Shown: one piece after another, positions 1,868-61,877 of the stretch
Layout: each line of letters begins with the position of its first letter
How positions within the stretch are numbered: position 1 is the first letter of the stretch
Source of the DNA: Calditrichia bacterium
GTDB taxonomy: Bacteria; Calditrichota; Calditrichia; RBG-13-44-9; J075
Direction of reading: 5' to 3'
DNA: 64,000 nt
Assembly: GCA_020635015.1 (NCBI GenBank)
Contig: JACKAP010000006.1
Coordinates: forward strand, 76,998 to 140,997
The notes under the pieces: generated by a model
What the model saw: only the letters and a program-made list of their open reading frames with translations
What the model was told of the DNA's origin: nothing
The model's database searches: none
Program-made: the position numbers and the translations under genes

Positions 1868-1936
1868 TTAGTTGTGGGTGATTGGTTGTTGGGTAAGATA
1901 GGTCTTTGCCAATGACCAATGACCAATCACCAATCG
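1868..1936. repeat. heptamer-arm hairpin: (GGTTGTT/GATTGGT)-core ggtaagataggtctttgcc-(ATGACCA)n
   Basis: Read directly. The core is shared with 20791-20853 (ggttaagacaggtctttgcc). Confidence 0.8.
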
Positions 1937-2020
1937 CAGTTCCTTAAATCTAAAGAACTTAGTGTGCCGTGTAGCAGTGTTTAAAAAAATTTAACCCATA
2001 AAACCGAGAGGCTTGCCGGC

Positions 2021-3217
2021 GTGGATTCCAAGAAAGCGGAACAGCGTTACCTGGATGAAATATCACTTCTGACCAGCAAGGAAGTGGAAGACTATATCCT
2101 GCTCAACCTGAAAAGGATCCGGGAGCGCCGCCGCAAGTTCGATATTCCGGTGATCGGCATTGCCGGTTCAGAGGGAAAAACCACCACCAAGCGGATGCTT
2201 TCGGCCATCCTGCGCCCGGCCCACCAGGTGTTGGAGACCCCGCCCAACTGCTCGACCGCCTCCGGGGTAACCGCCACCCTGCTGGAGATGAACCAGACCC
2301 ATCAATACGCCCTGCTGGAACTGGGGATTGTCAAATCCAAACAGTTTGAACTGGCGGTGCAGGTCGCCGAACCGACCATCGCCGCGATAACCAACATCGG
2401 AGAGGCGCATCTGGCCAACCTGGGCGATAAATACCACATCGCCGATGCCAAGGTCGAGCTGATCAAGCGTCTGCCCCCGGATGGCTATGCGGTGCTGAAT
2501 ATCGATGATGACCTGGTCAGCGAGCTTGCCGCCCATTCGACCAGCCGGAGGGTGATCAAGTTCGGCTTAAATAAAAATGCCCAATTCTTTGCCAATAAGA
2601 TCGAATATCTGGGGCCGGAGGGAATCCGCTTTCACGTGAACGGCTTTTATCCCTTCCACATGCCGATTTACGGTTCTGCCTCAATCTATAATGCCCTGCT
2701 GGCGATTTCGGTGGCCCGGTTGCTGGAGATCGAATTTGAGGAGATCCAGGAAGGGCTGGAGCAGCGTTTTTCCCTGCTCGATCACACCGGCAATCTGACC
2801 CGCCGCGACAATATCAATATCCTCGATTATACCTACGATGCCTCGATCAACTCAGTCACCAAGGCCTGCGAGTCGCTGGCCCAGTTTAAACCCTTCTCGG
2901 AAAAGCTGATCCTGGTGATCGGCGATATCCGCAATCCCGGGCCGGATGTGGCCGGCACCCACCTGAAAATGGGCTACTATATCGCCGCCCAGCCGATCGA
3001 TGTGGTGTTGACCATCGGCGAGGATGCCCGCCTGATCGGCGAGGGAATCCGGCGACTCAATCACACCAAAAAGATCGTGGAATGCAGCGGCGATGCACCC
3101 ACGCTTCTGGAGCGGCTCGCTGCCCACCTGACCCCGAACAGCACCGTGCTGTTTATCGGCAGCAAGGAGCTGCACCTGGAGGATACGCTGCAGGCGCTGC
3201 TGAAGATGATTGGGTGA
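2021..3217 (+). CDS. Mur ligase family protein (MurF-like, lacks the usual N-terminal domain)
   Basis: GTG start. Mur ligase P-loop VIGIAGSEGKTTTKRML, then central and C-terminal Mur ligase-like regions. 398 aa. Confidence 0.75.
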   Translation: MDSKKAEQRYLDEISLLTSKEVEDYILLNLKRIRERRRKFDIPVIGIAGSEGKTTTKRMLSAILRPAHQVLETPPNCSTASGVTATLLEMNQTHQYALLELGIVKSKQFELAVQVAEPTIAAITNIGEAHLANLGDKYHIADAKVELIKRLPPDGYAVLNIDDDLVSELAAHSTSRRVIKFGLNKNAQFFANKIEYLGPEGIRFHVNGFYPFHMPIYGSASIYNALLAISVARLLEIEFEEIQEGLEQRFSLLDHTGNLTRRDNINILDYTYDASINSVTKACESLAQFKPFSEKLILVIGDIRNPGPDVAGTHLKMGYYIAAQPIDVVLTIGEDARLIGEGIRRLNHTKKIVECSGDAPTLLERLAAHLTPNSTVLFIGSKELHLEDTLQALLKMIG

Positions 3218-3326
3218 ATGGGTTAATGGGTGGATGGGTTAATGGGTAAGAACGGATGTACGTCAACTGATTTTACACCCATTCACTCATTCACCCATTC
3301 ACTCATTCACCCATTCACCCATTCAC
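3212..3326. repeat. hairpin of (GGGTGAAT/GGGTTAAT)n and complementary (ACCCATTC/ACTCATTC)n arms
   Basis: gggtgaatgggttaatgggtggatgggttaatggg ... cacccattcactcattcacccattcactcattcacccattcacccattcac. The left arm begins within the last codon of the Mur-ligase gene and spans its stop. Confidence 0.85.
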
Positions 3327-3438
3327 GTTTTTTATATTCCCCCATTGTAAATATCCCATAAAAGCTTTACCTTTAACTCTTTCGAGCCGGAAATGTCAGA
3401 ATTTATTGTGTTGATTTTTTTGAAGTTAAAGGTTTTGT

Positions 3439-4099: not shown

Positions 4100-4127
4100 G
4101 TAGGGTAGGGTCGCGACCCTACCCTAC
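4100..4127. repeat. 28-nt perfect palindrome GTAGGGTAGGGTCGCGACCCTACCCTAC
   Basis: Read directly. Lies downstream of tsaC and is followed by (ACATCCA)n at 4145-4175. A near-identical copy is at 60768-60792. Confidence 0.9.
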
Positions 4128-4192
4128 GCGCGCGAATGGTGCAAACATCCAACATCCAACATCCGACATTCGAAACATCACAAGGAGTTCAC

Positions 4193-4579: not shown

Positions 4580-4582
4580 CGC

Positions 4583-5543: not shown

Positions 5544-5622
5544 CGTTGTTGGTTGTTGGCTTTTGGTTAAAGACCAAAGACCAACAACCAAGGACCAACA
5601 ACCAAGGACCAACAACCAACAA
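5544..5622. repeat. (GTTGTTG)n / (CAACAACCAAGGAC)n hairpin-forming repeat
   Basis: cgttgttggttgttggcttttggttaaagaccaaagaccaacaaccaaggaccaacaaccaaggaccaacaaccaacaagg. Ends just before ATG 5626. Confidence 0.85.
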
Positions 5623-7194: not shown

Positions 7195-8601
7195 TTGTCA
7201 ATGGATACGGTACTTAGTCAAATATTTCTCTATCTGGCCAGCATATACATGATCAATGGCATATTGATCAATATCTTTCGCCGTTTGAAGTTAGCCGATT
7301 TTATCGCTCACATATTGACCGGGATCGTCTTTAGCCTGTTGCTGATGGGGTGGGGCGAGTTTTTCGGCAGCGCGGGAACCGCCCCGTTTAACCACAACGG
7401 CCAGCTGGATCTTTTCTTTCGCCAATCCCAGTTGAACAGCGCTGCGGCGGAAGGGGATACGCTGAATCCGGTGCTGTCGCCGGACAGCGCCGCCATGCCG
7501 GTTGCCGGGGAAACAAATGCCCGGGTCGATGCGCTGCCGCCGGAAATCGCGGCGGCGGATAATCCCGACGCCCACTTCCTGCTGCTGATCAAATTCATGA
7601 TCACGGTTGGGTTGCTGCTCTTCCTGATGCAGTTGGGGCTGAACTTTGATCCCCGGTTCTTCCGGATGAAGAAGGAGGAGAACACCTGGCGCCAGGTGGG
7701 CATCTTCGCCGGCCTGACCGCGCTGATCGTCGGTCTGAGCAGCTACTTCCTGGTGCTGGAGCGCGACCTGCTGCTGTCCGGCCTGACCGTGATCGCTTTT
7801 CTCAGCATCCACATCGGTGCGGTGCTCTCCTATAATTTCCCAGTCTCCGCCCGCATGCAGCGGCCTTTCATCTTCCTGATCCAGTTGGCGATCCTGCTGG
7901 ATATTATCGTGATCGGCATCTATTCCGCCCTGGAAATTTATGTCAAATATCAAAATTATACCTTTTCTAAGCATGGTATTCACGGCATCTATTTGCTGAT
8001 CCTGCTGTTGTTCGTCATCCCGATTGTCTTCAACAAGGCCTCCGTCGCCATCTTCAAGACCTTATCCAAATGGATGGGAGAATATACCCTACTGCTCAAA
8101 CTGGGTATCCTGTTTTTCTTCTTTTATGCCGGCTTCCAGGCGGAGCTGTCGGTGCTGCTGCTGGGATTGTGGGCGGGACTGCTCTTCAATGCCCTGATGG
8201 ACATCTCCGAATTCGAATTTCGCCAGAAATTTTTTGCCGGGGCTTCGTTTCTTTATATCCTGCCGTTTGTCGAAATCGGGCGCTCATTGTTTTTTGGCGA
8301 ATTATATCAGCGCGGGTTTTGGATACACCTGGGGGTGATGATCGGTGCTCTGGTGCTGGTTTCCCTGGTGATGGGATTTCTCCAGCGGGGTGAACGGCAA
8401 TATCCGCTGGTCATTTCCGCCGGAACCTTTCCGCGGGGCGAATTGACCGTGTTGATCATCTGGCTGTTCAAGGAGATCGGCTGGATCCCGCTTTCGGTGT
8501 TTACCCTGCTGGTGGTGGTGGTGATCGTCACCAATCTGATCGGGACGGTAATGGGAAAGATCTTGTTCATCCGGCCGCTGCGGCGACAGATGCGCACCTG
8601 A
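7195..8601 (+). CDS. polytopic membrane protein, possibly cation/H+ exchanger family
   Basis: 468 aa with many hydrophobic segments. The N-terminus resembles Na+/H+ exchanger helices, and a ~60-aa soluble insert follows TM2. Family assignment is tentative. Confidence 0.4.
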   Translation: MSMDTVLSQIFLYLASIYMINGILINIFRRLKLADFIAHILTGIVFSLLLMGWGEFFGSAGTAPFNHNGQLDLFFRQSQLNSAAAEGDTLNPVLSPDSAAMPVAGETNARVDALPPEIAAADNPDAHFLLLIKFMITVGLLLFLMQLGLNFDPRFFRMKKEENTWRQVGIFAGLTALIVGLSSYFLVLERDLLLSGLTVIAFLSIHIGAVLSYNFPVSARMQRPFIFLIQLAILLDIIVIGIYSALEIYVKYQNYTFSKHGIHGIYLLILLLFVIPIVFNKASVAIFKTLSKWMGEYTLLLKLGILFFFFYAGFQAELSVLLLGLWAGLLFNALMDISEFEFRQKFFAGASFLYILPFVEIGRSLFFGELYQRGFWIHLGVMIGALVLVSLVMGFLQRGERQYPLVISAGTFPRGELTVLIIWLFKEIGWIPLSVFTLLVVVVIVTNLIGTVMGKILFIRPLRRQMRT

Positions 8602-9560: not shown

Positions 9561-9652
9561 ACCGCATCCAGCATCCAGCATCCAGCACCGAGCAAATTAA
9601 CCCGTTCAGGGGATAGCATTCATAAAAACAATTTTGTATATCTCAACTGATT

Positions 9653-11005: not shown

Positions 11006-12294
11006 AGCGATATGAGAAGCTGGTCTTTTGGATGACGCTAGTGCTGTTGAGCTCAACCGTATTGGCGCAAATTTCCAACCGCTTCCGCAACCGCGAAGCC
11101 GGCGTGCCATTCTTTGAGGCCAAGGTGCTGGAGACCTACTCGGAAGCAGAGGGCAAACTGCTGGCGCGGGCGTTTATTCAGATCGTCAACGACGATCTCA
11201 CCTTCGTAAAGAGCGGGGATGGCTTTCAGGCTGAAGTGCAGATCGAGATTTACCTGCGCCACAAAAGCAGCGATTTTGTGTTTAACCGTACCATTACCCA
11301 AAGCGTTTATACCGAGGATTTTGCCAGAACCAACGATCAGAATATCGTCAATACTTTTTCGACCGATATGGAAGTGGAAGAGGGTGAATATGAGGCGACC
11401 ATCACCGTGCTGGACCAGAATAATAACGAGCAATATACCCGACGCACCAGTTTCAACATCAGTGGCACCAATGCGGTCGATGCCGACCTGATGGTGGGAG
11501 ATATTCTCTTCTTCGACGAATTCCGCAGCGACGAAAACGGGGAAATTGCCGAGTTCAACCCCAAGCTGGATAATAATTTTTCCAGTGACAGCAAGCATCT
11601 TTACTGCTATTTCAACACCTTTACCCGTGATACCACCTCGGAAATGACCGTCGATTATGTGGTGCAGGATGACCGGGGACTGGTGGTACAGCAGAACCAG
11701 TATGTCATTTCCAGCCCGGAAAAGGGTTATCAGGATCATTACATCCGCCTCAACCGCTACTATTTTAGCCGCAACGATTACGCAATCAACATCAAGGTCT
11801 CCTACAATGGTAAATCGGTGCAGCGTACCGCCCGGTTCGGCTTTTACTGGCAGTTCGTTCCCGGAACGGAAAAAGATCTCGATCTGGCGATCAAGCAACT
11901 GCGTTATATCGCCAAGGAAGATTCGATCAAGTACTACCTGAAGAAAGGCAGCTATGAGGAGAAAAAGGCCTTTTTCCAGCGCTTCTGGGAGAGCAAAGAT
12001 CCCAATCCCGATACCGAGGCCAATGAGCTGATGGAGGAATACTATCGCCGGATCAACTATGCCAACGGGCAGTTTTCCTCATCCGGCCTGGGGGGCTGGA
12101 TTACCGACCGCGGGCGCATTTTCATCAAATTCGGCCAGCCGGATGATGTGGAGCGCCATCCCTTCGAGGCGAATTCCTATCCCTACGAGATCTGGCGCTA
12201 CTATTCGTTGCAGAAAAACTTCCTGTTCATCGACCGCACCGGCTTCGGCGATTATGATCTGCATCCGTCGTATTATTATGTGGAATATGAGTGA
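11002..12294 (+). CDS. GWxTD domain-containing protein
   Basis: Signal peptide. C-terminal GLGGWITDRGRIFIKFGQPDD matches the GWxTD motif. The start overlaps the rimO stop (ATGA). Confidence 0.8.
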   Translation: MKRYEKLVFWMTLVLLSSTVLAQISNRFRNREAGVPFFEAKVLETYSEAEGKLLARAFIQIVNDDLTFVKSGDGFQAEVQIEIYLRHKSSDFVFNRTITQSVYTEDFARTNDQNIVNTFSTDMEVEEGEYEATITVLDQNNNEQYTRRTSFNISGTNAVDADLMVGDILFFDEFRSDENGEIAEFNPKLDNNFSSDSKHLYCYFNTFTRDTTSEMTVDYVVQDDRGLVVQQNQYVISSPEKGYQDHYIRLNRYYFSRNDYAINIKVSYNGKSVQRTARFGFYWQFVPGTEKDLDLAIKQLRYIAKEDSIKYYLKKGSYEEKKAFFQRFWESKDPNPDTEANELMEEYYRRINYANGQFSSSGLGGWITDRGRIFIKFGQPDDVERHPFEANSYPYEIWRYYSLQKNFLFIDRTGFGDYDLHPSYYYVEYE

Positions 12295-12296
12295 GG

Positions 12297-12568
12297 TGTT
12301 TGCTCGCTTCGCTCGCGATGTTAGTTCGCTTCGCTCACGATGTTTGCTCGCTGGCGCTCGCGATGTTTGCTCACTTCGTTCGCGATATTTGCGCTTCGCG
12401 CGATATTTGTTCGCTACGCTCACGATGTTTGCGCTTCGGGCGTCATGGAACGAAGAATACCTACTCCTCGATACTCGCAAGGTACCGCGCGAAGCGCAAA
12501 TATCGCTCACGAAGTGAGCAAACATCGCGCGAAGCGCAAATATCGTGAGCGACAGCGAGCAAACATCA
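12297..12568. repeat. array of ~22-bp units (TGTTTGCTCGCTTCGCTCGCGA-like): about 7 direct copies, then about 4 inverted copies
   Basis: Read directly. It occupies nearly the whole gap between the convergent GWxTD and BlaR1-like genes. Units abut without spacers. Confidence 0.85.
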
Positions 12569-12588
12569 CTCAAATGCCAAACTTCCCT

Positions 12589-46826: not shown

Positions 46827-46926
46827 TTGCATGGGGCATGGGGCATGGTGTATTACAGTGCGAGTGTCGACGTATACGCTAGCACATGACGGCGCCATGC
46901 GCTTTGCCCTTTGCCCCATGCAAAAG
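46827..46926 (+). repeat. ~95-bp palindromic MITE/REP-like element, copy 1
   Basis: Terminal inverted repeats TTGCATGGGGCATGGGGCATGG / CCATG..CCCCATGCAAAAG, with an internal core tattacagtgcg...gcgc..acggcgcc shared with copies 2 and 3. Confidence 0.85.
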
Positions 46927-47074
46927 CCGTCCCCAATATCCAGTCCCCGGCACGAACGAAAATAAGTATGCTAGATATACACATTTTTTTTGTATGTTGC
47001 TGATGAGACGGGGCGATCTGCGGGTCGCCTTTGTTTTTTGGCAGCATGATGTTGATTGATGAAGAGGAGTCAGG

Positions 47075-49049: not shown

Positions 49050-49127
49050 GCCGATTATTACCAGCACCTGAGATTGGATTGACGATGCTCAGGTTGCATT
49101 CGCGGCAATCAAAGACGGTCTGTTGAG

Positions 49128-49478: not shown

Positions 49479-49482
49479 GGGG

Positions 49483-49604
49483 GACGAAGGGTGAAGGATG
49501 AAGGATGAAGGATGAAGGATGAAGGATGAAGGATGAAGGATGAAGGATGAAGGATAAAGGATAAAGGATGAAGGATAAAGGATGAAGGATGAAGGATGAA
49601 GGAT
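49483..49604. repeat. (GGATGAA)n / (GGATAAA)n heptamer array filling the whole intergenic spacer
   Basis: About 17 heptamer units lie between the MerR-family stop (49478) and the next start (49605). Confidence 0.9.
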
Positions 49605-49970
49605 ATGTCGGAACGTAAATCGCCACGACTCAGTGGAGGCATCCAAAAATTTTGGGAAGAGCGGGAGCAGTTGAATGAAACCGTGCTGAAAAATGCCGGC
49701 CTCACCACCCGGCGTTTTTTCAGTCTGGATCATCAGGCCTACCAGGAAGGCGCTCTGCCGGTCAAGACCAAGGAACTGCTGGGCCTGGTCGCCTCGCTGG
49801 TGCTGCGCTGCGACGATTGCATCTCCTATCATCTGGTGCGCTGCCGGGAAGAAGGGGTGAGCGCGGCAGAATTGGAAGAGGCGCTGTCGATCGGGCTGGT
49901 CGTGGGAGGCTCTATCACCATTCCCCATCTCCGCCGGGCCTTCCGCGCCTGGGAGGAGATGGAAGGCTAG
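49605..49970 (+). CDS. carboxymuconolactone decarboxylase (AhpD-like) family protein
   Basis: LVLRCDDCISYH CxxC motif. About 120 aa. Confidence 0.75.
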   Translation: MSERKSPRLSGGIQKFWEEREQLNETVLKNAGLTTRRFFSLDHQAYQEGALPVKTKELLGLVASLVLRCDDCISYHLVRCREEGVSAAELEEALSIGLVVGGSITIPHLRRAFRAWEEMEG

Positions 49971-49991
49971 CGCCGCACGCACCCTAGGGCT

Positions 49992-51149: not shown

Positions 51150-51201
51150 GCTTACGCTCCTTTCCCAAAAGTGTGCAAACTATGAACATTCCCCGCCGGT
51201 T

Positions 51202-52662: not shown

Positions 52663-52769
52663 CCCTTTGCTGATTCGATCATAATATATCAAAATTTACC
52701 ACACCGCCAAAGAGAATGCAAAAAGGCTTGATTTTTCTTGAATGATCAATCTGAGAGCAGTGTAGGTCT

Positions 52770-52858
52770 TTTTTGCATGGGGCATGGGGTATTACAGTGC
52801 GGGTCTCGGAATATGCGCTTGCGCATTACGGCGCCATGCCCTATGCCCCATGCAAAAG
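52770..52858 (+). repeat. ~95-bp palindromic MITE/REP-like element, copy 2
   Basis: Same termini and core as copy 1. Lies in the divergent promoter region between the FHA-GAF-PAS gene and the MarR-family gene. Confidence 0.85.
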
Positions 52859-52972
52859 TTTTCCACATTTTACAGTTCTCAAAATGCTTGTTTGCAAAAA
52901 AAAATAAAAAATGTGTTGCAACATTAAATGTCTATACATATATTTTTGGCGAATAAAATAACCGAGTATTAT

Positions 52973-53422
52973 ATGGAACTGGAAAAAGAGATTAATCAAA
53001 GCAAGTTTCGCAACGAATATCAGAAGATGATCATCAACATCCTCTTCACCGCCGGGTGGTTGAATCATCACAATTCGCTGAAGTTAAAGCCCCATGGCAT
53101 ATCGCCTCAGCAGTTTAACGTACTGCGGATTCTGCGCGGCCAGCATCCCAATCCGGTCACGATCAACCTGCTGCAGGAGCGGATGCTTGACCGCATGTCG
53201 AATGCCTCCCGGTTGGTGGAGAAGCTGCGCCAGAAAAACCTGGTGGAACGGCGTGTCTGCGAACGCGATCGCCGGGCGGTTGACGTCATCATCACTGATC
53301 AAGGGTTGGCAATATTGGCAGAACTGGATAAAGTGATGATCGAATGGGAAAACGAATGCAAAGTGTTGAGTGAAAGCGAAGCAGATACCCTGAACCGGCT
53401 CCTAAATAAACTGCGCGGCTAG
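52973..53422 (+). CDS. MarR family transcriptional regulator
   Basis: ISPQQFNVLRILRGQHPNPVTINLLQERMLDRMSNASRLVEKLRQKNLVER winged helix. Confidence 0.85.
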   Translation: MELEKEINQSKFRNEYQKMIINILFTAGWLNHHNSLKLKPHGISPQQFNVLRILRGQHPNPVTINLLQERMLDRMSNASRLVEKLRQKNLVERRVCERDRRAVDVIITDQGLAILAELDKVMIEWENECKVLSESEADTLNRLLNKLRG

Positions 53423-53425
53423 GGG

Positions 53426-53478
53426 GGTTATAGATTGCGGTTATTGGCAACAACACCCAATAACCGCAATCTATAACC
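53426..53478 (+). terminator. perfect 22-bp-stem hairpin downstream of the MarR-family gene (no U-tract)
   Basis: ggttatagattgcggttattgg, a 9-nt loop, then ccaataaccgcaatctataacc. Starts 4 nt after the stop codon. Confidence 0.4.
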
Positions 53479-53576
53479 AAATGCCAAAGACTAAAGACCA
53501 AGAGCTAAATGTTTGAAAGACATATTTTATAGTAACCAAACAAATATCACCATAAATCAATCTAAGGAGTTGTATC

Positions 53577-54185
53577 ATGAAAAAGTATTTTGCAGTGTTG
53601 TTGGTTTTCGCCTTGACCGGGTTGGGAGGCAGCTTGTTGGCCCAGACTTACACCGTTGATGTAGAGAATAGCAAACTGGCCTGGGAAGGTGAAAAAGTGA
53701 CCGGTAAGCATCATGGAATTATCAATATTCAATCCGGGCAACTTTCCCGTGACGGTGAAAGCCTGAGCGGCGAATTCACGATTGACATGAATTCGATCGT
53801 TGACTTCGACCTGGAAGACCCGCAGTGGAACCAGAAACTGGTCGGTCATCTGAAGTCGGATGATTTCTTCTCGGTGGACAAGCATCCGGTCTCCACTTTC
53901 AAGATTACCAATGTCGCCGAATATGAAGCCAAAGAAGGGGAGAAGGCAACCCACACCATTACTGGCGATCTGACCATCAAAGGGATCACCCATCAGATTT
54001 CCTTCCCGGCCTATGTCAATTTCAACGGGGAAACCGTGGTGGCCGAAGCGAACTTCGCGATCGATCGCACCAAGTGGGATATCCGCTTCCGTTCCGGCAG
54101 CTTCTTCGAGAACCTGGGCGACAAGCTGATCTACGACGACATCAAATTCGAACTGAATCTGACCGGTGCTAAGGCCGAAAGCTAA
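53577..54185 (+). CDS. YceI family periplasmic protein
   Basis: Signal peptide. YTVDVENSKLAWEGEKVTGKHHG... Confidence 0.85.
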   Translation: MKKYFAVLLVFALTGLGGSLLAQTYTVDVENSKLAWEGEKVTGKHHGIINIQSGQLSRDGESLSGEFTIDMNSIVDFDLEDPQWNQKLVGHLKSDDFFSVDKHPVSTFKITNVAEYEAKEGEKATHTITGDLTIKGITHQISFPAYVNFNGETVVAEANFAIDRTKWDIRFRSGSFFENLGDKLIYDDIKFELNLTGAKAES

Positions 54186-54315
54186 GGATCACCGGTTCAA
54201 GTAAGGCGGCCAGTATTTTGTTTTATAAGTCTGGCCGCCTTATGAATTATGACGGCTATAAGCTAATAAATCAGTTTTTCTTTACAATTATATTTAGCAT
54301 TTTTTTGGCAATATT

Positions 54316-55023
54316 ATGAAAATACTATACATATATCCCCATCCCGATGATGAATCCTTTGGCCCCGGCCATGTGATGGCGAAACAGGTGCGCGATGGCC
54401 ACGAGGTATACTTGCTGACCCTCACCAAAGGAGGCGCCACCCGGCAGCGGTTTAAATACAATCATACGATCGCTGAGATGGGGGAGGTGCGTTACCGGGA
54501 AATGCTGAATGTCGCCAGGACGTTAAATCTCACCGGCATGACCGTGCTGGACCTGCCCGACAGCGGATTGAAGGAGATGGATCCCCGGGAGATCGAAAAA
54601 GTGGTTGCTGCCGAGATCGAGCGGCTGCAGCCGGCAGTGGTGGTGACCTATGCGGTTCACGGTATCAGCGGCTTTCACGATCATCTGGTGACCCATGCAG
54701 TAGTAAAAAGAGTTTTTGTGGATTTAAAGGAAAGAACAAATTATCTTAGACGGTTGGCAATGGTAACACTCACCGAAGCTGATGCGAGTATGGGAACGAT
54801 GTTTAAGCTGAATCATTCCAAGCCTGAGGAAATCGACTGCATCGTGACGGTGGAAGATGCCGACATCAAAAGCTGCCATGCAGCCCTGGATTGCTATACG
54901 ACATTTCAGGAAACGATCGAGAAATCCGGCATCAAATCATTCATTAAGCACCAGGCGGTGTTTGAAATTTTTCAGGAAGATCACAAGCCGCCGCTGACCG
55001 ATCTCTTTGATCATTTGTCCTGA
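54316..55023 (+). CDS. PIG-L/LmbE family deacetylase
   Basis: ILYIYPHPDDESFG motif. Confidence 0.8.
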   Translation: MKILYIYPHPDDESFGPGHVMAKQVRDGHEVYLLTLTKGGATRQRFKYNHTIAEMGEVRYREMLNVARTLNLTGMTVLDLPDSGLKEMDPREIEKVVAAEIERLQPAVVVTYAVHGISGFHDHLVTHAVVKRVFVDLKERTNYLRRLAMVTLTEADASMGTMFKLNHSKPEEIDCIVTVEDADIKSCHAALDCYTTFQETIEKSGIKSFIKHQAVFEIFQEDHKPPLTDLFDHLS

Positions 55024-55140
55024 GCATGATCACGCTGCTGCGGTTCGCTAAATCATTGAACCGGGCTGCTGGTAGGCGTGATGTCTTTACATGCATCCGG
55101 GGGAAGTGGCATTTTCTTTAAATCCAGGAGGGTTGCAGCA

Positions 55141-55707
55141 ATGAAATCGTGCACAAGCGTCCGGGCGATGATGAGTGGGGTATTCATTTCGTTGGTGACC
55201 ATGTGCGCCTGCGCGCCATTAAACTCGGAACGGGAGGACGGTCGAAGTTATACCCCGCCTCCGAAGCCGAAGCAAACGACGACGGTTAAAGCTGATACTT
55301 CCGGTCAGAACGGGCCGGTAATCGGGCCGCCGCTGCCGCCGTCTTATAAAAAACCGGAAAACCCCAAGCCCAAAGCCGTAACACCCGCGCCGAAAGCGGA
55401 GAAGGTCTATTATGGGAAGGCGGTTTATATCGACAATCAGCTGCACGGCCGGCCGACGGCCAGTGGCGAGCGTTACGACCGCACCAAATTTACTGCCGCC
55501 CATATTTTTTTGCCGTTTGGCACCATCTGCCGGGTAACCAACCTGGCCAACGGAAGGACCGTCAATGTGCGGATCAATGACCGCTGCAAGAATGTCGACA
55601 ATCGGGTGATCGACCTCTCTTACGCCGCAGCGGAGGAATTGGACGCGATTCTGGCGGGGGTCATCAATGTAAAAATTGAAGTGGTTAAAGAAGTGGAGTA
55701 TCCGTGA
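55141..55707 (+). CDS. RlpA-like (DPBB domain) lipoprotein
   Basis: Lipobox-like LVTMCAC. GRPTASGERYDRTKFTAAH...VNVRINDR. AGGAGG RBS precedes ATG 55141. Confidence 0.8.
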   Translation: MKSCTSVRAMMSGVFISLVTMCACAPLNSEREDGRSYTPPPKPKQTTTVKADTSGQNGPVIGPPLPPSYKKPENPKPKAVTPAPKAEKVYYGKAVYIDNQLHGRPTASGERYDRTKFTAAHIFLPFGTICRVTNLANGRTVNVRINDRCKNVDNRVIDLSYAAAEELDAILAGVINVKIEVVKEVEYP

Positions 55708-55708
55708 G

Positions 55709-57028
55709 GTGAAAACCGCCTGTATCATCGGCGCCGGCGCCTCCGGTATTACCGCCGCGAAAACCTTCCGGGAGCAGGGAATTGATTTTGACTGCTTTGA
55801 GAAAGGTTCCGGTATCGGCGGCAACTGGCGCTACGGAAACGACAACGGGATGTCTTCCGCCTACCGCTCCCTGCATATCATCTCCAGCAAGTGGAACATG
55901 CAGTATTCCGATTATCCCATGCCGGAAGATTTTCCCGACTACGGCCATCACAGCGATGTACTGCGTTATTTCGAGAATTATGTCGATCACTTTGGCATTC
56001 GCGAGACCATCCGCTTTCATTGCGAAGTGAAAGAGGTGACGCCGCACTCCCGGGATGGCTGGGAGGTGACCCTCGCAGGGGGCGAGCGCCGGAACTATCG
56101 TGCGGTGGTGGTGGCCAACGGCCATCACTGGAATCCCCGCTGGCCGGAATTTCCCGGAAGCTTTCACGGAGAAGCAATCCATTCTCATCATTATAAAACG
56201 CCCGAGGCCTTTGAAGACAAAAATGTGCTGATCGTCGGGATCGGAAATTCCGCCTGCGATATTGCGGTCGACCTCTCCCGCCTGGCCCGCACGGTGCATC
56301 TTTCTACCCGGCGCAGCGCCTATGTGCTTCCGAAATATGTGCTGGGAATTCCCAATGATCAATGGCTTCATCCGCTGTTCGATTATTTCCCGCTGGCCCT
56401 GCGTCGCACCGCCTTCCGGATATTGGCCTACATGACCGTTGGTAACCAGGAGCGCTACGGCCTGCCCCGGCCCCGCCACAAATTGTTGCAGGAGCATCCC
56501 ACTCTGAATCAGGAATTTTTGTCCTACGTGGGACACGGGCGGATCAAGATCAAACCGGATATCCGCGAACTGCAGGGGGAACGGGTGGGGTTCGTCGACG
56601 GCAGCAGTGAACCGTTCGATACGATCATTTATGCCACCGGCTATAACATCACCTTTCCGTTTCTGAAGCCGGAAGTGTTTACGGTGCAGGACAACCGGGT
56701 ACACCTTTACCGGCGGGTGATCGATCCGGAATTGCCCAACTTGTTCTTCCTGGGGCTGATCCAGCCCCTCGGGGCGATCATGCCCCTGGCGGAGTTGCAG
56801 GCCCGCTGGATCGCCGGGCTGCTGAACGGCGAGATGGCCCTGCCGGACGAAGGGCGGATGCGCCGCGATATCGAGGCCGATCGTTCCCTCCTGCGCCGCC
56901 GCTACACCGACTCCGCCCGCCATACCATCCAGGTGGATTTTTGGGATTATGTGCACCAACTGAAGCGGGAAATGCGGAAAGGGAAGAAGCTTGCTGATAG
57001 GAAAAGGAGGATGAAGGGTGAAGGATAA
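55709..57028 (+). CDS. flavin-containing monooxygenase
   Basis: FAD motif ACIIGAGASGITAAK, FMO motif FHGEAIHSHHYK and NADPH motif VLIVGIGNSACDIA. GTG start 2 nt after the RlpA-like stop. Confidence 0.85.
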   Translation: MKTACIIGAGASGITAAKTFREQGIDFDCFEKGSGIGGNWRYGNDNGMSSAYRSLHIISSKWNMQYSDYPMPEDFPDYGHHSDVLRYFENYVDHFGIRETIRFHCEVKEVTPHSRDGWEVTLAGGERRNYRAVVVANGHHWNPRWPEFPGSFHGEAIHSHHYKTPEAFEDKNVLIVGIGNSACDIAVDLSRLARTVHLSTRRSAYVLPKYVLGIPNDQWLHPLFDYFPLALRRTAFRILAYMTVGNQERYGLPRPRHKLLQEHPTLNQEFLSYVGHGRIKIKPDIRELQGERVGFVDGSSEPFDTIIYATGYNITFPFLKPEVFTVQDNRVHLYRRVIDPELPNLFFLGLIQPLGAIMPLAELQARWIAGLLNGEMALPDEGRMRRDIEADRSLLRRRYTDSARHTIQVDFWDYVHQLKREMRKGKKLADRKRRMKGEG

Positions 57029-57145
57029 AGGGCAAAGGATAAAGGGCAAAGGATAAAGGAATAACCTTGATTGACATTGGGACTGGATTTTGTTCTGTTT
57101 CAGCATCCAGCATCCAGCATCCAGTACAACCCATCAACCCATTTA
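57008..57145. repeat. composite simple-repeat element: (GGATAAAGG/GGATGAA)n-core-(GCATCCA)n-(CAACCCAT)n
   Basis: Same module order as the element upstream of the S9 peptidase gene. It overlaps the last codons and the stop of the FMO gene. Confidence 0.85.
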
Positions 57146-57175
57146 CAAAAGAAAAACATCCACCATATCATACAC

Positions 57176-57946
57176 ATGCAACCAAAAACCATCTTCATCA
57201 CCGGCGCCGCTTCCGGGATCGGAGCGGCTACTGCCCGCAAGTTTCACGCGCAGGGCTGGTTTGTAGGTTTATATGATCTGAATCCCGCTCCGCTGGCTGA
57301 GTTGCAGCGCTCCCTGGGCACGGAAAACAGCTGCTTCATGGCCTTGGATGTACGCGACCGGGAGGCGGTGGCAGCGGCGATGGACCACTTCGGGGCGCAC
57401 AGCGGGGGGAGGATGAACCTGCTGTTCAACTGTGCCGGGATCATCGGCATCGGCCCCTTCGAGGACCTCCGGCTGGAAGATCACCTGCGTACGGCGGAGG
57501 TGAATTTTCAGGGGGTGCTCAACTGCACGTTTCTGGCTTTTCCGTTGCTGAAAGCAACTCCCGGCGCGCGGGTGGTCAGCATGTCCTCCGCCTCGGCCCG
57601 CTACGGCACGCCGGACTTTGCCAGCTACTCGGCCAGCAAATTCGCGGTGCGCGGCCTAACCGAAGCGCTGAATATCGAATGGCGCCGGCATGGCATCGTG
57701 GTCAGCGACATCATGCCTCCATTCGTTAATACCCCGATGATCCAGAGCGGGCCGGCCAGCAAGAGTTTCGAGCGGATGGGCATCCGTCTCAGGCCGGAGC
57801 AGGTGGCTGAGGTGGTCTGGAAAGCCGCCCGGGGAAACAAGGTGCACTATCCGGTCGGTTTGCAGTTCAAACTGCTCAACGCCCTCTCGGCCGTTTCGCC
57901 TGACTGGCTGACCCGCCGGGTGATGCGCTGGATTGGGGGATATTAG
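57176..57946 (+). CDS. SDR family oxidoreductase
   Basis: IFITGAASGIGAATA and YSASKFAVRGL motifs. Confidence 0.85.
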   Translation: MQPKTIFITGAASGIGAATARKFHAQGWFVGLYDLNPAPLAELQRSLGTENSCFMALDVRDREAVAAAMDHFGAHSGGRMNLLFNCAGIIGIGPFEDLRLEDHLRTAEVNFQGVLNCTFLAFPLLKATPGARVVSMSSASARYGTPDFASYSASKFAVRGLTEALNIEWRRHGIVVSDIMPPFVNTPMIQSGPASKSFERMGIRLRPEQVAEVVWKAARGNKVHYPVGLQFKLLNALSAVSPDWLTRRVMRWIGGY

Positions 57947-57973
57947 TGTGCGCTACCCGGGCTTTCGCAAGAA

Positions 57974-58045
57974 CAGATTCCTCACTTCGTTCGGAATGAC
58001 AGCACAAATGTCATTCCGAAGGCGCCAGCCGAGGAATCTGTAATT
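57974..58045. repeat. 72-bp hairpin element (cagattcctcacttcgttcggaatgaca / tgtcattccgaaggcgccagccgaggaatctg)
   Basis: Imperfect inverted repeat. A second, more degenerate copy is at 25511-25584, and related arms (gtcattgcgag) are at 36295-36416. Confidence 0.8.
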
Positions 58046-58054
58046 CTACAAGAT

Positions 58055-58678
58055 GTGACCATCTATGCCAAAAGGAGCGACGTGAAAAAAATTCTGATTA
58101 TCTTCGCCCACCCCGCGTTTCAGAAATCGCGGGTGAATGCCCGGCTGATCGAAGGGCTGGCTCAGATGGAAGGGATTACCTTCCACGATCTTTATCAGGC
58201 CTACCCGGAGTTCGACATCGATATCGCCGCCGAGCAGCAGCTGCTGACCGGGCATGACGTGATCGTGTTTCACCATCCCTTCTTCTGGTACAGCACCCCG
58301 GCGCTGCTCAAGGAGTGGCAGGATCTGGTGCTGGAGCATGGCTGGGCCTATGGCAGCCAGGGGAATCAGCTTAATGACAAGTGGTTTTTTAACATCATCA
58401 CCACCGGTGGCGGTGCGGCTGCCTACAGCCAGCAGGGCTATAATTTTTACACCATCCGCCAGTTGCTGGCGCCGATCGAACAGACTGCCAGGCTATGCAA
58501 GATGGTGTTTCTGCCGCCCTATGTGGTGCACGGCACCCACGCCATCACCCCAGAGGAAATCGAAGCATACCGGGAGAAAGGCCAACGGCTGCTGACGATG
58601 ATCCGCGATGGGGATTTTGACCTGGCGGCTGCCATGCAACTGCAATATTTAAATGATTATATGAAACGCTCAGACTGA
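58055..58678 (+). CDS. kefG: NAD(P)H oxidoreductase, KefF/KefG-type ancillary protein of K+ efflux system
   Basis: KILIIFAHPAFQKSRVN...HPFFWYSTPALLKEWQD flavodoxin-like fold. Located upstream of the kefC-like gene. The start may be GTG 58085. Confidence 0.75.
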   Translation: MTIYAKRSDVKKILIIFAHPAFQKSRVNARLIEGLAQMEGITFHDLYQAYPEFDIDIAAEQQLLTGHDVIVFHHPFFWYSTPALLKEWQDLVLEHGWAYGSQGNQLNDKWFFNIITTGGGAAAYSQQGYNFYTIRQLLAPIEQTARLCKMVFLPPYVVHGTHAITPEEIEAYREKGQRLLTMIRDGDFDLAAAMQLQYLNDYMKRSD

Positions 58679-58698
58679 TGACGATGTAATGCGGCGCA

Positions 58699-58798
58699 CT
58701 TTTGCATGGGGCATGGGGCATGGCGCCGTAATATGCAAGCGCATGGTCCGACACCCGCACTGTAATACACCATGCCCCATGCTCCTGGCCCCATGCAA
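58699..58798 (-). repeat. ~95-bp palindromic MITE/REP-like element, copy 3 (inverted orientation)
   Basis: Its reverse complement aligns with copies 1 and 2. Sits between kefG-like and kefC-like. Confidence 0.85.
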
Positions 58799-58875
58799 TA
58801 TAACTTGACACTATACTCAGTCTGAGCAGACTCATTCTGAGCGATCCGAAAAACTCAAAAACAGGAAATAGATCC

Positions 58876-60771
58876 ATGCACGAAGGCGGATTTTTTTATC
58901 AGGCATTTGTTTATCTCAGCGCAGCCGTTGTCTCGGTGCCGGTGGCCAAGCGGCTCGGCCTGGGCTCGGTGCTGGGATATTTGATCGCCGGCATCATCAT
59001 CGGACCTTTTGCCCTGGGCCTGGTGGGGGAGGAAGGGCAGGACGTGATGCATTTTGCCGAATTCGGGGTGGTGATGATGCTGTTTCTGATCGGCCTGGAA
59101 CTGCAGCCGGCCCTGCTCTGGAAGCTGCGCGTGCCGATCCTTGGCCTGGGTGGGCTGCAGGTTGGTTTGACCAGTGCGCTGATCCTCGGTGCGGGAATTG
59201 CTTTCGGACTGGCCTGGCAAACCGCTCTGGCGCTTGGGCTGACCCTGGCGCTCTCCTCTACGGCGATTGTGTTGCAGACCCTGAACGAAAAAGGGTTGAT
59301 GAAAACCGCCGGAGGCCAGAATGCTTTCTCGGTGCTGCTGTTCCAGGATATCGCAGTGATCCCGATCCTGGCGGTGATGCCGCTCCTGGCAAGCGGACAT
59401 GTTGCTGCGGGGTCCGGAGACGGGCATCATGCCGTCACCTGGGTGGAAGGGCTGCCGATCTGGGCCCAGACCGGGGTGGTGCTGGGGGTGGTGGTGATGA
59501 TCGTGCTGGCCGGCCAGTACCTGATCAGCCCCCTGTTCCGCATTATCGCCCGCACCCGCCTGCGGGAAATTTTTACCGCCGCCGCCCTGTTGCTGGTGAT
59601 CGGCATTGCCCTGCTGATGACCCAGGTGGGGCTCAGTCCGGCATTAGGCACCTTCCTGGCCGGGGTGGTGCTGGCCCAGAGCGAATACCGCCATGAGTTG
59701 GAAACCGATATCGAACCGTTCAAAGGACTGCTGCTGGGCCTGTTTTTCATTGCGGTGGGGGCTTCGATCGACTTCAACCTGATCGCCGCCGATCCCCTGT
59801 TGATCACCCAACTGGTGATCGCCCTGATCCTGCTGAAGTTCGTGGTGCTCTTCGTCACCGGTAAGTTTTTCCGCATGAGCCTGGATAATAACCTGCTTTT
59901 CGCCTTTGCCCTGGCCCAGGGCGGGGAGTTTGCCTTTGTGCTCTTCTCCTTTGCGGTGCAGAATCAGGTGATCCCCCCGGCGGTGGCCAATCCGCTGATC
60001 GCGGTGGTGGCAGTCTCCATGGCCCTGACCCCGCTGCTGATGCTGATCAACGAGAAGCTGATCCAGCCGCGCTTCGGCACCACCGAGAAGGCTGCCCGGG
60101 CCGCCGATGAAATCGATGAACAGAGCAAGGTGATCATCGCCGGCTTCGGCCGGGTGGGCAGCACCGTCGGCCGCTTTCTGCAGGCCAACGGGGTGCAGGC
60201 CACCTACCTGGATATCGATCCGGACAATGTCGACCTCCTGCGCAAGATGGGGCTGAAGGTATTTTACGGCGACGCCTCGCGCCATGACCTGCTCCATGCC
60301 GCCGGGGCCGGGGAAGCGGAACTGCTCATTGTGGCGGTGGACGATCCCGTCAAAACCCTGGCGATCGTGGAAACCGCCCGCAAGCACTATCCCAATCTGA
60401 AGATCATGGCGCGCAGCGTGGGCTGGACCGATTCCTACGATCTACTCGATGCCGGCATTGGCGATGTCTACCGCGAGACGCTCGACTCCGCCCTGCGTAT
60501 GGCGGCAGATGCCCTGCACCGGCTGGGATTCCGCCGCCATCAGGCCATGCGGGCGGTCAAAACTTTCCGCCGGCATGACGAGCGCTACCTGCGCGAGCTG
60601 GCCGCGATGCGCCACGACAGCAAAGCGCTGATCCGGGGCGCGCGACAGCGAATCGAAGACCTGGAGAAACTCATGCAGGAAGAGAGTGAGAATGTCGGCA
60701 AGCACAAAGACCTCGGATGGGATGCGACGACATTGATTGAAGAGTATGGAAAAATGCAATCGGATTCGTAG
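58876..60771 (+). CDS. kefC: glutathione-regulated K+ efflux system protein (KefB/KefC family, CPA2 + RCK domain)
   Basis: CPA2 membrane domain followed by an RCK/TrkA-N Rossmann motif VIIAGFGRVGSTVGRFL. 631 aa. Confidence 0.9.
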   Translation: MHEGGFFYQAFVYLSAAVVSVPVAKRLGLGSVLGYLIAGIIIGPFALGLVGEEGQDVMHFAEFGVVMMLFLIGLELQPALLWKLRVPILGLGGLQVGLTSALILGAGIAFGLAWQTALALGLTLALSSTAIVLQTLNEKGLMKTAGGQNAFSVLLFQDIAVIPILAVMPLLASGHVAAGSGDGHHAVTWVEGLPIWAQTGVVLGVVVMIVLAGQYLISPLFRIIARTRLREIFTAAALLLVIGIALLMTQVGLSPALGTFLAGVVLAQSEYRHELETDIEPFKGLLLGLFFIAVGASIDFNLIAADPLLITQLVIALILLKFVVLFVTGKFFRMSLDNNLLFAFALAQGGEFAFVLFSFAVQNQVIPPAVANPLIAVVAVSMALTPLLMLINEKLIQPRFGTTEKAARAADEIDEQSKVIIAGFGRVGSTVGRFLQANGVQATYLDIDPDNVDLLRKMGLKVFYGDASRHDLLHAAGAGEAELLIVAVDDPVKTLAIVETARKHYPNLKIMARSVGWTDSYDLLDAGIGDVYRETLDSALRMAADALHRLGFRRHQAMRAVKTFRRHDERYLRELAAMRHDSKALIRGARQRIEDLEKLMQEESENVGKHKDLGWDATTLIEEYGKMQSDS

Positions 60772-60792
60772 GGTAGGGTCGCGACCCTACCC
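60768..60792. repeat. second copy of the GTAGGGTAGGGTCGCGACCCTACCC palindrome
   Basis: Overlaps the kefC stop codon (TAG 60769-60771). Followed by (CCCCTCAA/CCCATCAA) repeats to about 60826. Confidence 0.9.
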
Positions 60793-60842
60793 ACACCCCT
60801 CAACCCCTCAACCCATCAACCATAACACGGAGCACATACATC

Positions 60843-61790
60843 ATGTCCCCCAAAGTCCACGGCATCCATCACGTTACTGCCATGGCCGGCGATCCCCAGC
60901 AGAATGTCGATTTTTATGCCGGCATTCTCGGGCTGCGCATGGTCAAAAAGACCGTCAATTTTGACGATCCGTTCACCTATCATTTTTACTATGGCGATGA
61001 TGCCGGCAATCCCGGCACGATCATGACCTTTTTCCCCTGGAGCTCTGCCGGGATGCGCGGCCGGATCGGCAATGGTCAGTTGAGCGTCACCTCCTTTGCC
61101 GTACCCGAAGGTTCACTGACCTTCTGGGAGGCGCGCCTGAAAGCGCATCGGGTAAAGATCCGGGGTATTTCCGAACGGTTTTCGGAAACGGTGCTCTCGT
61201 TTGACGATCCGGACGGGCTGTTGCTGGAACTGGTGAGTTCGCCGGCCGAGCGCCGTCCGGGATGGGAGAACGGCAGCATTCCTGCCGATCATGCCATCCG
61301 TGGGTTTTACAGCGTCACCCTTTCCCTGGCGGCCTACGAGCGAACCGCCGGTCTGATGACCTCCACCCTGGGTTACCAGGCGGTGGAGGACGCAGACAGC
61401 CGCTTTCGCTATGAATCCGGGACCGGGGGCCCTGGTACCTATGTCGACCTGTTTTGCCAGCCTTCCGCGCCCCGCGGCACGATGGGCGTGGGCGCGGTGC
61501 ACCACGTGGCCTGGCGGATCAACGACGACGAGTCCCAGCTGCAGCTTCGCCGGGAATTGCTCGCCTCCGGATACCAGGTCTCGCCGGTGATGGACCGGAA
61601 CTATTTCCATTCGATCTACTTTCGGGAGCCCGGCGGGGTGCTGTTCGAGGTGGCGACCGATCCCCCGGGTTTTGCAGTTGATGAACCGGCCGAGAGCCTG
61701 GGCCAGTCGCTGAAGCTGCCCCCCTGGCTGGAGAAGGAGCGGGCGTTGATCGAACAGAACCTGACGCCGGTAACGGTGCGGAAACCCTGA
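60843..61790 (+). CDS. VOC-family ring-cleaving dioxygenase (MhqO-like, two glyoxalase domains)
   Basis: HGIHHVTAMAGDPQQNVDFYAGILGLRMVKKTVNFDD, with a second VOC repeat GAVHHVAWRI. Confidence 0.75.
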   Translation: MSPKVHGIHHVTAMAGDPQQNVDFYAGILGLRMVKKTVNFDDPFTYHFYYGDDAGNPGTIMTFFPWSSAGMRGRIGNGQLSVTSFAVPEGSLTFWEARLKAHRVKIRGISERFSETVLSFDDPDGLLLELVSSPAERRPGWENGSIPADHAIRGFYSVTLSLAAYERTAGLMTSTLGYQAVEDADSRFRYESGTGGPGTYVDLFCQPSAPRGTMGVGAVHHVAWRINDDESQLQLRRELLASGYQVSPVMDRNYFHSIYFREPGGVLFEVATDPPGFAVDEPAESLGQSLKLPPWLEKERALIEQNLTPVTVRKP

Positions 61791-61877
61791 TGAAGGGAAA
61801 AGGATGAAGGATAAAGGATGAAGGATAAAGGGAAGAAGAATAGCCCCATTGTTCACGATGGGGAGGAGGAGTAGCCC

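Follow-up and report, generated by a model that had tools for sequence, protein, structure and literature searches.

Tandem repeats of 7 and 8 nucleotides at gene boundaries in a Calditrichia bacterium: length-variable intergenic arrays of a previously described class

In a 64,000-nucleotide stretch of DNA from a Calditrichia bacterium (NCBI GenBank assembly GCA_020635015.1, contig JACKAP010000006.1, positions 76,998 to 140,997), referred to here as the window, many of the spacers between genes carry tandem arrays of 7- or 8-nucleotide units. These arrays represent an already described class of intergenic heptanucleotide repeats that is new in Calditrichota, and not a new system. They are probably slippage-prone simple-sequence repeats of the kind called short tandemly repeated repetitive (STRR) sequences or long simple-sequence repeats (LSSRs), which have spread as small palindromic modules and are tolerated only outside reading frames. 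From the sequences compared, we see no evidence that the arrays serve one dedicated function.

Arrays in the 64-kb window were called with Tandem Repeats Finder (TRF) and overlapping rows were merged, 20 dinucleotide-preserving shuffles of the window served as the chance baseline, and the gene map was derived by codon-usage scoring and corrected by Pfam matches and by gene calls on related contigs. TRF returned 24 rows of period 7 and nine of period 8, and merging yields 30 arrays totaling 1241 nt, compared with one to five arrays totaling 19-94 nt in the shuffles. With 87% of the window coding, 26 of the 30 array midpoints lie between genes (binomial P = 8e-20), and the four arrays within genes are all weak (2.0-2.4 copies). 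Array DNA accounts for 13.7% of intergenic nucleotides, or about one-seventh, and 16 of the 44 spacers in the window carry an array. An earlier note, made from the sequence alone, had described a genome-style repeat signature linked to gene boundaries and sited almost exclusively between genes. This signature is indeed present, random placement is not seen in the window, and both TRF and direct reading find tandem 7- or 8-nt units at all 13 loci that were listed, with coordinates right to within a few nucleotides. That list was nevertheless incomplete, as it missed an inverted composite module, the third of its kind, downstream of an S9 peptidase gene (45293-45525), hairpin elements with GCATGGG-repeat arms at 46827, 52772 and 58701, and a CCGCCCT-type array at 36500.

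The window arrays comprise at least 12 types of unit, with heptamers and octamers mixed. The GGAT core on which all of the repeats were thought to be built is found in only about 11 of the 26 intergenic arrays and marks the largest unit family only, being absent from the GGTTGTT/CCAATGA, GCATGGG, ACCCCTCA and CCGCCCT types and from most octamers. What the G-rich strands have in common is a near-absence of C. Head-to-tail 7-nt copies in runs longer than chance, dispersal at many mostly non-coding loci and the presence of several units in one genome are all traits of heptanucleotide LSSRs and STRRs. A CRISPR array is ruled out, given that the units measure 7-8 nt and are directly adjacent, whereas CRISPRs have 23-47-nt repeats with unique spacers. 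Rfam and tRNA scans of the window gave no matches, and so the hairpins described below are not known RNA families.

Strain comparisons provide direct support for slippage-prone repeats. We found contigs from other strains by way of the M16 peptidase gene (window 45563-46798), using its identical sequence, plus close variants to reach further contigs, in the NCBI metagenome-assembled genome (MAG) GCA_020434115.1, several European Nucleotide Archive (ENA) assemblies made with megahit or SPAdes-type programs, and Logan assemblies. The same arrays recur, variant units included and between the same flanks, on more than 15 independent contigs that match the window at 98-99.8% identity. Between constant unique flanks, GATGCTG arrays have alleles of four, six or seven copies and CCTTTAT arrays have alleles of five, seven or eight. 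The GGATGAA array between the MerR and CMD genes has about 17 copies versus about 8-9 in other strains, an AACATCC array has three copies versus at least four (one strain), and the GCATGGG hairpin D1 has long and short alleles. For composite module C2, copy-number alleles could be read in nine strains. Arrays therefore change by whole units much faster than their flanks gain substitutions, and such whole-unit copy-number polymorphism between strains is a further LSSR/STRR trait. The proposal that the repeats are slipped-strand variable spacers is thereby supported, as the length differences of whole units are seen directly.

The same contigs bear on the concern, raised at the outset, that the arrays are assembly or sequencing artefacts. 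Many strain contigs terminate inside an array, as short-read contigs often do here, and two scaffolds have runs of N at arrays. However, recovery of the same flanks with variant units from different samples and assemblers (NCBI MAG, ENA and Logan), in the more than 15 contigs mentioned above, makes an artefact almost inconceivable.

In one of the strains (GCA_020434115.1), the contig tail corresponding to window 49476-49560 has the MerR stop codon TAG changed to AAG; its MerR is annotated as nine residues longer, ending in the GGATGAA array, which also has a different make-up of units. This coincidence of an array change with stop loss, the hypervariable copy number between strains, and the location of some arrays between putative promoters and start codons (as upstream of the S9 gene) are what contingency loci might look like, wherein changes in repeat number switch flanking genes on and off (phase variation). 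Nonetheless, the flanking genes have housekeeping or metabolic roles and are not surface, restriction or virulence genes, the arrays avoid coding sequence, and the roughly one-third of spacers that carry an array are far too many for a contingency set. We consider phase variation very improbable as the reason for these arrays.

One of the putative promoters just mentioned is a sigma-70-like TTGACC-17-CATATT (43245-43273) immediately upstream of the S9 gene's CAACCCAT leader. In addition, the 43-nt core of composite modules C1 and C2, described below, holds TTCACA/TTCGCA-16-TATTTT (43054-43081 on the minus strand and 45400-45430 on the plus strand), and in both copies this motif points through the TTTATCC arm to the adjacent gene, UT/M23 and M16 respectively. 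Judged by its consensus-level match, the core motif could be a portable promoter. Since the counts of sigma-70 and terminator consensus matches are not above shuffle expectation, these promoter-like motifs serve as leads only.

A second observation concerns the way in which arrays abut genes. The stop codon of a Mur ligase gene (3215-3217) lies inside the first unit of an array, and those of the S9 peptidase (45293-45295), FMO (57026-57028) and a glyoxalase-family gene (61788-61790) likewise lie in an array or its first unit. At the other end of a gene, the S9 peptidase ATG (43370) is the exact endpoint of the CAACCCAT array, and the MerR-CMD spacer is filled entirely by the GGATGAA array. These cases agree with the earlier description of arrays abutting gene ends. 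The SDR start was an error in that description, as its ATG (57176) does not adjoin the CAACCCAT units but lies 34 nt past the last of them. The units GGATGAA, GGATAAA, GGGTGAAT and GGGTTAAT contain TGA or TAA and, as neither 7 nor 8 is divisible by three, every frame meets a stop within three units of such an array. The stops of the four genes named above thus fall inside array units, and the impression that arrays begin exactly at a stop codon arises because an array that reaches a gene defines its stop. Among the neighboring genes are those for Mur ligase, Sua5, RidA, FtsY, peptidases, MerR, FMO and SDR proteins.

On some strands the arrays leave frames open, and public annotations consequently list spurious long open reading frame (ORF) extensions as well as small ORFs called 'hypothetical protein'. 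Examples are a 742-aa ORF beginning with TTG that covers the S9 leader (window 43067-45295), an ORF at 7447-7718 of the strain contig L007, and 85-aa ORFs that follow the M16 gene in strain contigs L010 and L012.

Third, the arrays have a polarity. The G-rich strand, read 5' to 3', starts by its 5' neighbor gene and points away from it in 22 of the 26 window arrays (P = 5e-4, for arrays that are not fully independent). On the sense strand, arrays that follow a stop codon are consequently rich in G and those that precede a start codon rich in C, and all 13 array-based palindromes have the G arm first on both strands. Replication-strand bias is ruled out by inspection, as G-rich arrays number 13 and 15 on the two strands of the window; being equally common on both, they cannot owe their polarity to replication direction. 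The same positional and strand rule has already been reported for other bacteria (Rehm et al. 2015; PMC4692102).

Many arrays are paired with a complementary array, and the earlier note had described the loci as organized into hairpins. When each locus was folded with DNA parameters and compared with dinucleotide shuffles (z-score), this description held for about 10 of the 17 loci. Families A, B, D and E and module C2 give significant z-scores from -2.9 to -6.3, and in C1 the GGATAAA and GCATCCA arms pair only via 4-nt GGAT:ATCC blocks (z -2.1 to -2.9). The other seven loci give values near 0 or positive: six are single arrays without a partner (4144, 9564, 36500, 49479, 60795 and 61789; z about 0) and the seventh is module C3 (57000-57145; z +1.4).

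Three or four families that have unique cores are dispersed in the window. Family A comprises three loci with GGTTGTT-type and AACAACC/AATGACC-type arms (all without assigned strand, as are elements B1 and E below). Element A1 (1866-1938; z -4.0), called by TRF and aligned with the other two, has arms of GGTGATTGGTTGTTGG and (CCAATGA)3.7 around a core, TAAGATAGGTCTTTGCCAA, that is the same in A3 (20788-20852, between convergent genes; z -2.9); alignment gives the 19-21-nt core common to the two as TAAGAYAGGTCTTTGCCAA. In A2 (5545-5622; z -3.7), (GTTGTTG)3.4 and (ACCAACA/ACCAAGG)6 flank GGTTAAAGACC, and the element ends 3 nt ahead of the next start codon. A TGACCAA rotation at 1909-1934, within A1, is the complement of TTGGTCA, which, as the earlier note also had it, is reportedly an STRR unit (STRR2, described by Mazel and colleagues in 1990; a literature check gave only unrelated papers). 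The other window units differ from it.

The strongest fold among the A to E elements belongs to the octamer hairpin B1 (3207-3326; z -6.3), in which (GGGTGAAT/GGGTTAAT)5 and (CACCCATT)6.4 surround a 28-nt core. The Mur ligase TGA lies in its first unit, a G-quadruplex (G4) motif is present on the plus strand, and a T6 run follows the 3' arm. Small hairpin E (42828-42890; z -4.1) pairs (GATGCTG/GATACTG)3.7 with GAGCATCCAGC and, in the sense direction, is C-rich upstream of the minus-strand UT/M23 gene. The latter gene is a single 717-aa ORF (window 40612-42765, minus strand) with a urea-transporter domain and an M23 peptidase domain.

The composite modules are larger. C1 (42962-43199, plus strand) consists of an octamer remnant, (GGATAAA)5, TTGAAG, (GATACTG)3, the 43-nt core and (GCATCCA)14.7. 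C2 (45293-45525, minus strand; z -4.7) begins at the S9 stop codon and consists of six GGGTGGAT-type octamers, (GATGCTG)6, the core and (CCTTTAT)7.7. The two are homologous across the whole composite as reverse complements, with 41 of 43 core nucleotides identical, and they bracket the S9 gene as an inverted pair of about 230 nt. No inversion of the S9 gene between them was found in the six strains that cover it. Between C1 and the S9 gene lies (ATCAACCC)10.2 (43290-43371, plus strand), which ends exactly at the ATG and has G4 motifs on the minus strand. C3 (57008-57142, plus strand), upstream of the SDR gene, is made of (GGATGAA/GGGTGAA/GGATAAA/GGGCAAA)7.6, a 40-nt core, (CAGCATC)3.4 and (CAACCCAT)2; the FMO stop lies within its first array and it is not a hairpin. 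The loci upstream of the S9 and SDR genes had been linked as copies of one module, and they do share the order of their arrays, but alignment finds the cores unrelated.

Family D has three copies of about 95 nt in both orientations, with inverted termini and with conserved arms and interior (mean column identity 70%, a short allele included). D1 (46827-46923, plus strand; z -4.5) is a palindrome with GCATGGG-repeat arms, D2 (52772-52857, plus strand; z -4.4) lies between divergent genes, and D3 (58701-58799, minus strand; z -3.1) is oriented opposite to both. A metagenome scan for the D-element core returned no match, the species being apparently absent from the JGI set.

Among the single arrays, the minus-strand array (CCGCCCT/CCGCACT)7 (36500-36548), G-rich in the sense direction, covers the last 22 nt of gene 36527-37903 at its 3' end and has no hairpin, and (GGATGAA/GGATAAA)17.6 (49479-49604, plus strand), the array that fills the MerR-CMD spacer, is a 127-nt tract with no secondary structure at all. 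Two more plus-strand arrays form no hairpin: (AACATCC)3.7 (4144-4169), which is C-rich in the sense direction and lies 23 nt upstream of a RidA-family start, and (GCATCCA)3.4 (9564-9594), which lies 3 nt past the FtsY stop and is one of the four exceptions to the polarity. Near the end of the window, plus-strand (ACCCCTCA)3.4 (60795-60821) lies upstream of the glyoxalase-family gene and lacks a hairpin of its own, and (GGATGAA/GGATAAA)4.7 (61789-61831, plus strand) starts at the stop codon of that gene (60843-61790) and is unstructured. The gene reached by the 36500 array belongs to a set of adjacent minus-strand genes for an Orn/DAP decarboxylase, an ATP-grasp protein and a PqqD-like protein (window 36527-39269), which may be a small peptide-modification cluster resembling those for ribosomally synthesized and post-translationally modified peptides (RiPPs).

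Other inverted repeats also lie between genes. A 286-nt palindrome between convergent genes (window 12290-12575), in which 20-22-nt tandem units face their complement across a unique centre (DNA dG -103.5 kcal/mol, z = -15), has the architecture of array plus complement at a longer period. The palindrome (TAGGG)2TCGCGA(CCCTA)2 occurs twice (4100-4127 and 60769-60792), each time downstream of a stop codon (directly so at 60769) and each time followed by a C-rich array, a Shine-Dalgarno (SD) sequence and a start codon. Three more inverted repeats, also intergenic, do not consist of short tandem units; they are a perfect 22-nt pair (53426-53478), a 24-nt pair with 96% complementarity (62572-62656) and a 40-nt AT-rich pair with 80% (25481-25609).

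The hairpins at gene ends could be taken as transcript punctuation, in which terminators, insulators or 3'-end stabilizers, comparable to the repetitive extragenic palindromes and bacterial interspersed mosaic elements (REP/BIME) that shield mRNA from exonucleases, are selected for their siting at gene ends. The roughly 10 loci that fold better than shuffles (z -2.1 to -6.3), the G-rich arms that start at or a few nucleotides from stop codons, the T6 run after B1, and the recurrence of the same placement across phyla among the matches listed for the scan below all speak for this view. Yet seven loci have no structure, no hairpin except B1 has a U-tract, and the D elements are flanked by 5'-TTTT...AAAA-3', the reverse of a bidirectional terminator. 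Furthermore, arm lengths vary freely between strains, and the region of divergent promoters at 42828-43371 holds arrays as well. At 47010-47041, 90 nt past D1, GGGGCGATCTGCGGGTCGCCTT and the T-run after it form a canonical intrinsic terminator, indicating that the organism uses ordinary terminators beside the repeat hairpins. For most loci we reject intrinsic termination, as B1 alone has a T-run and a consensus scan of 42500-62000 lists none of the array hairpins in that range. The terminator or insulator role suggested in the earlier note therefore fares poorly, and we regard punctuation in the broader sense as fairly unlikely.

The repeats do resemble cyanobacterial STRRs, as the earlier note proposed, and its view that the host is not a cyanobacterium is confirmed by the M16 protein, which is 100% identical to proteins that NCBI names Calditrichae or Calditrichota bacterium. 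The next M16 relatives have at most about 62% identity, and many are named Calditrichia. Exact-protein look-ups found the M16 and RidA proteins and no record for the S9 peptidase, a 1163-aa protein or the glyoxalase-family protein. Using the M16 homologue, we picked four other species that have the S9/M16/AlaDH/deacetylase/MerR gene order in common (GC 46-65%); we take these to be Calditrichia, although only one of their M16 proteins is so named by NCBI. Each of the species has heptamer arrays between genes, with units that differ from those of the window: GAAGTAA, AGTGAGA and ATTACGC in the first, CAGTTAA/CAGTGAA in the second, AGTTCAA and TTTGTGT in the third and, in the orthologous S9-M16 spacer of the fourth, 13 copies of GTGGGAA directly after the S9 stop and 10.6 copies of TCCGCGT directly before the M16 start. 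Conservation of array position across species is unconvincing, in that the S9-M16 spacer has arrays in three of the four species but nothing comparable holds for the spacer downstream of MerR. A likely Calditrichia assembly, GCA_028284905.1 (contig L137, 3608-3680), carries CAGTTAT/CAGTTAA/CAGTGAA, the complement of TAACTGA-type heptamers.

Beyond the phylum, a scan for (GGATNNN)4GGAT in one genome per prokaryotic species found at least 119 stretches. The matches listed include Cyanobacteria, Bacteroidota, Ignavibacteria, Planctomycetota, Acidobacteriota, Verrucomicrobiota, Chloroflexota, Armatimonadota, Fibrobacterota, Elusimicrobia, Xanthomonadaceae and others, and among them are mixtures of GGATGCT/GGATACT and of GGATGAA/GGATAAA as in the window, typically starting at a stop codon. 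Of 59 such GGAT arrays among the matches listed, 43 are nearer their 5' neighbor (P = 6e-4), at a median distance of 24 nt as against 102 nt to the 3' neighbor, and three lie between divergent genes. Transfer of GGATGCT/GGATACT arrays between phyla finds no support, since no shared core or flank was seen among the matches listed. The idea of a lineage-specific system is overstated: the unit set is species-specific, but the habit extends to four other likely Calditrichia species and GGAT heptamers to many phyla.

These comparisons also weigh on the possibility that the arrays bind ribosomes or proteins, such as S1, Csp, CsrA-type regulators or a GGAT-recognizing nucleoid protein, to tune translation or chromosome structure. 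Such a role was proposed for TAACTGA repeats (MacGregor 2015; PMC4679880), and it would accord with the reuse of a small unit set at many loci, with the C/A-rich unstructured arrays that abut starts lacking an SD sequence (S9), and with the SD-like AAGGA that GGATGAA presents every 7 nt while filling a stop-to-start spacer. However, related Calditrichia species keep the habit and yet have wholly different units, leaving no conserved recognition sequence. Copy number varies about two-fold between near-identical strains, the neighbor genes are unrelated housekeeping genes, and periods of 7 and 8 coexist, which precludes a common helical phasing. We hold a binding function to be improbable.

Several known systems resemble these arrays. 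Rehm et al. [quoted passage not shown] The arrays of the window have the same intergenic share of about 90%, rarity between divergent genes, length variation and inverted pairs. They differ from the Xanthomonas and Nostoc repeats in that most units lack a G3 tract, there is no preference for four units and several unrelated unit families coexist.

The G3 tract matters for the proposal that these are G4-forming regulatory repeats like the GGGNATC class. In a motif scan, the octamer arrays GGGTGAAT and GGGTTGAT and the array at 60785-60814 fit (G3+N1-7)x4, and position and strand follow the rule of Rehm et al. (PMC4692102). Canonical motifs nonetheless occur at only four intergenic loci (eight in the whole window, compared with two to six in shuffles), the GGAT heptamers that make up most array DNA have GG runs only, and copy numbers range from 3 to 17 with no preference for four. 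With most units lacking a G3 tract, G4 formation is not the common denominator; as a general explanation we reject it, given that only four intergenic loci qualify, and we judge a G4-based regulatory role decidedly improbable.

TAACTGA heptamer direct repeats occur in Beggiatoaceae, cyanobacteria and Bacteroidetes (MacGregor 2015; PMC4679880). Like them, the present arrays are intergenic, often lie a few nucleotides before a start codon that lacks a canonical SD sequence, mix heptamers, show indels in 7-nt steps between strains and break contigs. The relative with CAGTTAT/CAGTTAA units provides a link to this family, whereas the window's own units differ, and the arrays here are as common after stops as before starts. 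In the form in which PMC4679880 cites them, Mrazek et al. (2007) found heptanucleotides to be the most abundant long simple-sequence repeat in many prokaryotes and proposed polymerase slippage. The STRR repeats of Calothrix appear in the earlier heptamer-repeat literature as a cited work (Mazel et al. 1990, reference 39 of PMC4692102). The window arrays match the STRRs of heterocystous cyanobacteria and long simple-sequence repeats in having tandem 7-nt units of several types per genome that are dispersed, mostly intergenic and variable in copy number, for which slippage has been proposed. They depart from STRRs in phylum (Calditrichota), in unit set, in the admixture of octamers and in that many arrays form the arms of palindromic modules with unique cores. 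A literature search for such repeats in Calditrichota or Caldithrix found nothing, and neither did one for the MAG accessions.

The modules, in turn, recall REP/BIME, REPIN and MITEs (miniature inverted-repeat transposable elements). They are short imperfect palindromes dispersed in spacers in both orientations (as the inverted copies D3 and C2 illustrate) and, in families A, C and D, they combine arms and linkers as mosaics. Unlike those elements, their arms are variable-number 7- or 8-nt repeats, no target-site duplication was seen, and no RAYT or parent insertion sequence was found in the 64 kb, whose proteins were partly screened.

Taken together, these observations are best accommodated by the slippage-prone repeats proposed at the outset, and a mechanism may be sketched. 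Replication slippage or unequal recombination would resize arrays, and 7- or 8-nt units, which break the frame and bring stops, would let arrays survive only in untranslated spacers. Units would spread within short palindromic or pseudo-palindromic modules of array, core and complementary array, and these would behave like non-autonomous elements of the REP/BIME or MITE type that recombine via their arrays. Selection would tolerate one polarity only, in which either strand, when read, has its G-rich arm 5' and its C-rich arm 3'. This may be because a G-first palindrome would pair its C-rich arm once transcribed, in either direction, whereas a C-first palindrome would expose unstructured C-rich RNA first, which could load Rho or disturb expression. 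Local side effects are likely, such as leaders that are C/A-rich and unstructured, runs of SD-like AAGGA, 3' hairpins and octamers able to form G4.

Several points weigh against this explanation. Pure slippage leaves the species-specific reuse of units at many loci unexplained, and the same is true of the strict G-first polarity. The Rho argument is our own, is tentative, and fits poorly with the single C-rich arrays just upstream of start codons. Mobility of the modules is deduced only from their dispersed copies: no target-site duplications of the kind expected of MITEs were seen at the module flanks, no presence/absence polymorphism of a whole module was found among the compared strains, and no candidate transposase for the modules emerged from the 64 kb, in which proteins were screened only in part. 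The sole apparent module swap is in GCA_020434175.1 and may be a misassembly, given that this is a short-read MAG scaffold with a run of N. Finally, to judge from sequence, the arrays may have a real regulatory role.

In the swap just mentioned (contig L007, 7400-7720, corresponding to window 42960-43200), the GGATAAA arm and C core upstream of S9 are replaced by a GGGTTGAT array and a core resembling that of family B (window 3248-3275). In one other strain (contig L009, ENA ERZ27309297, 174-1470), an IS4-type insertion sequence encoding DDE_Tnp_1 lies inside C2 at about window 45440, with about 10 nt (ATCCAGCATC) duplicated, and the left flank of the contig no longer matches the S9 gene. It is the only insertion sequence seen, and its ends are unrelated to the D elements.

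A more active process can also be envisaged, in which an unrecognized host or mobile activity installs and homogenizes palindromic modules at gene boundaries, these modules being nested, with octamer arms outside, heptamer arms inside and possibly a promoter in the core. This would be a polarity-constrained spacer-building system whose units are swapped wholesale between species while the period of 7 or 8 and the G-first orientation are kept, possibly across many phyla. We consider such a system unlikely.

The arrays also have practical consequences: they break short-read assemblies of these MAGs and shift annotated stops and starts, and they offer ready-made variable-number tandem repeat (VNTR) markers for strain typing of uncultured Calditrichia. 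The unit turnover, the cross-phylum polarity and the nested modules that bracket a gene are possibly of interest to specialists. For the biology of the group, the findings extend the unexplained phenomenon of heptanucleotide repeats to another phylum, and the polarity rule known from Xanthomonas and Nostoc also holds for GGAT-core arrays across many phyla, among the matches listed. They add the comparative fact that, from one related species to the next, the units are replaced completely and period, location and polarity are kept, which argues against a sequence-specific binding function. These facts point to a general mutational or transcription-linked constraint, and thereby sharpen an old question rather than answer it.

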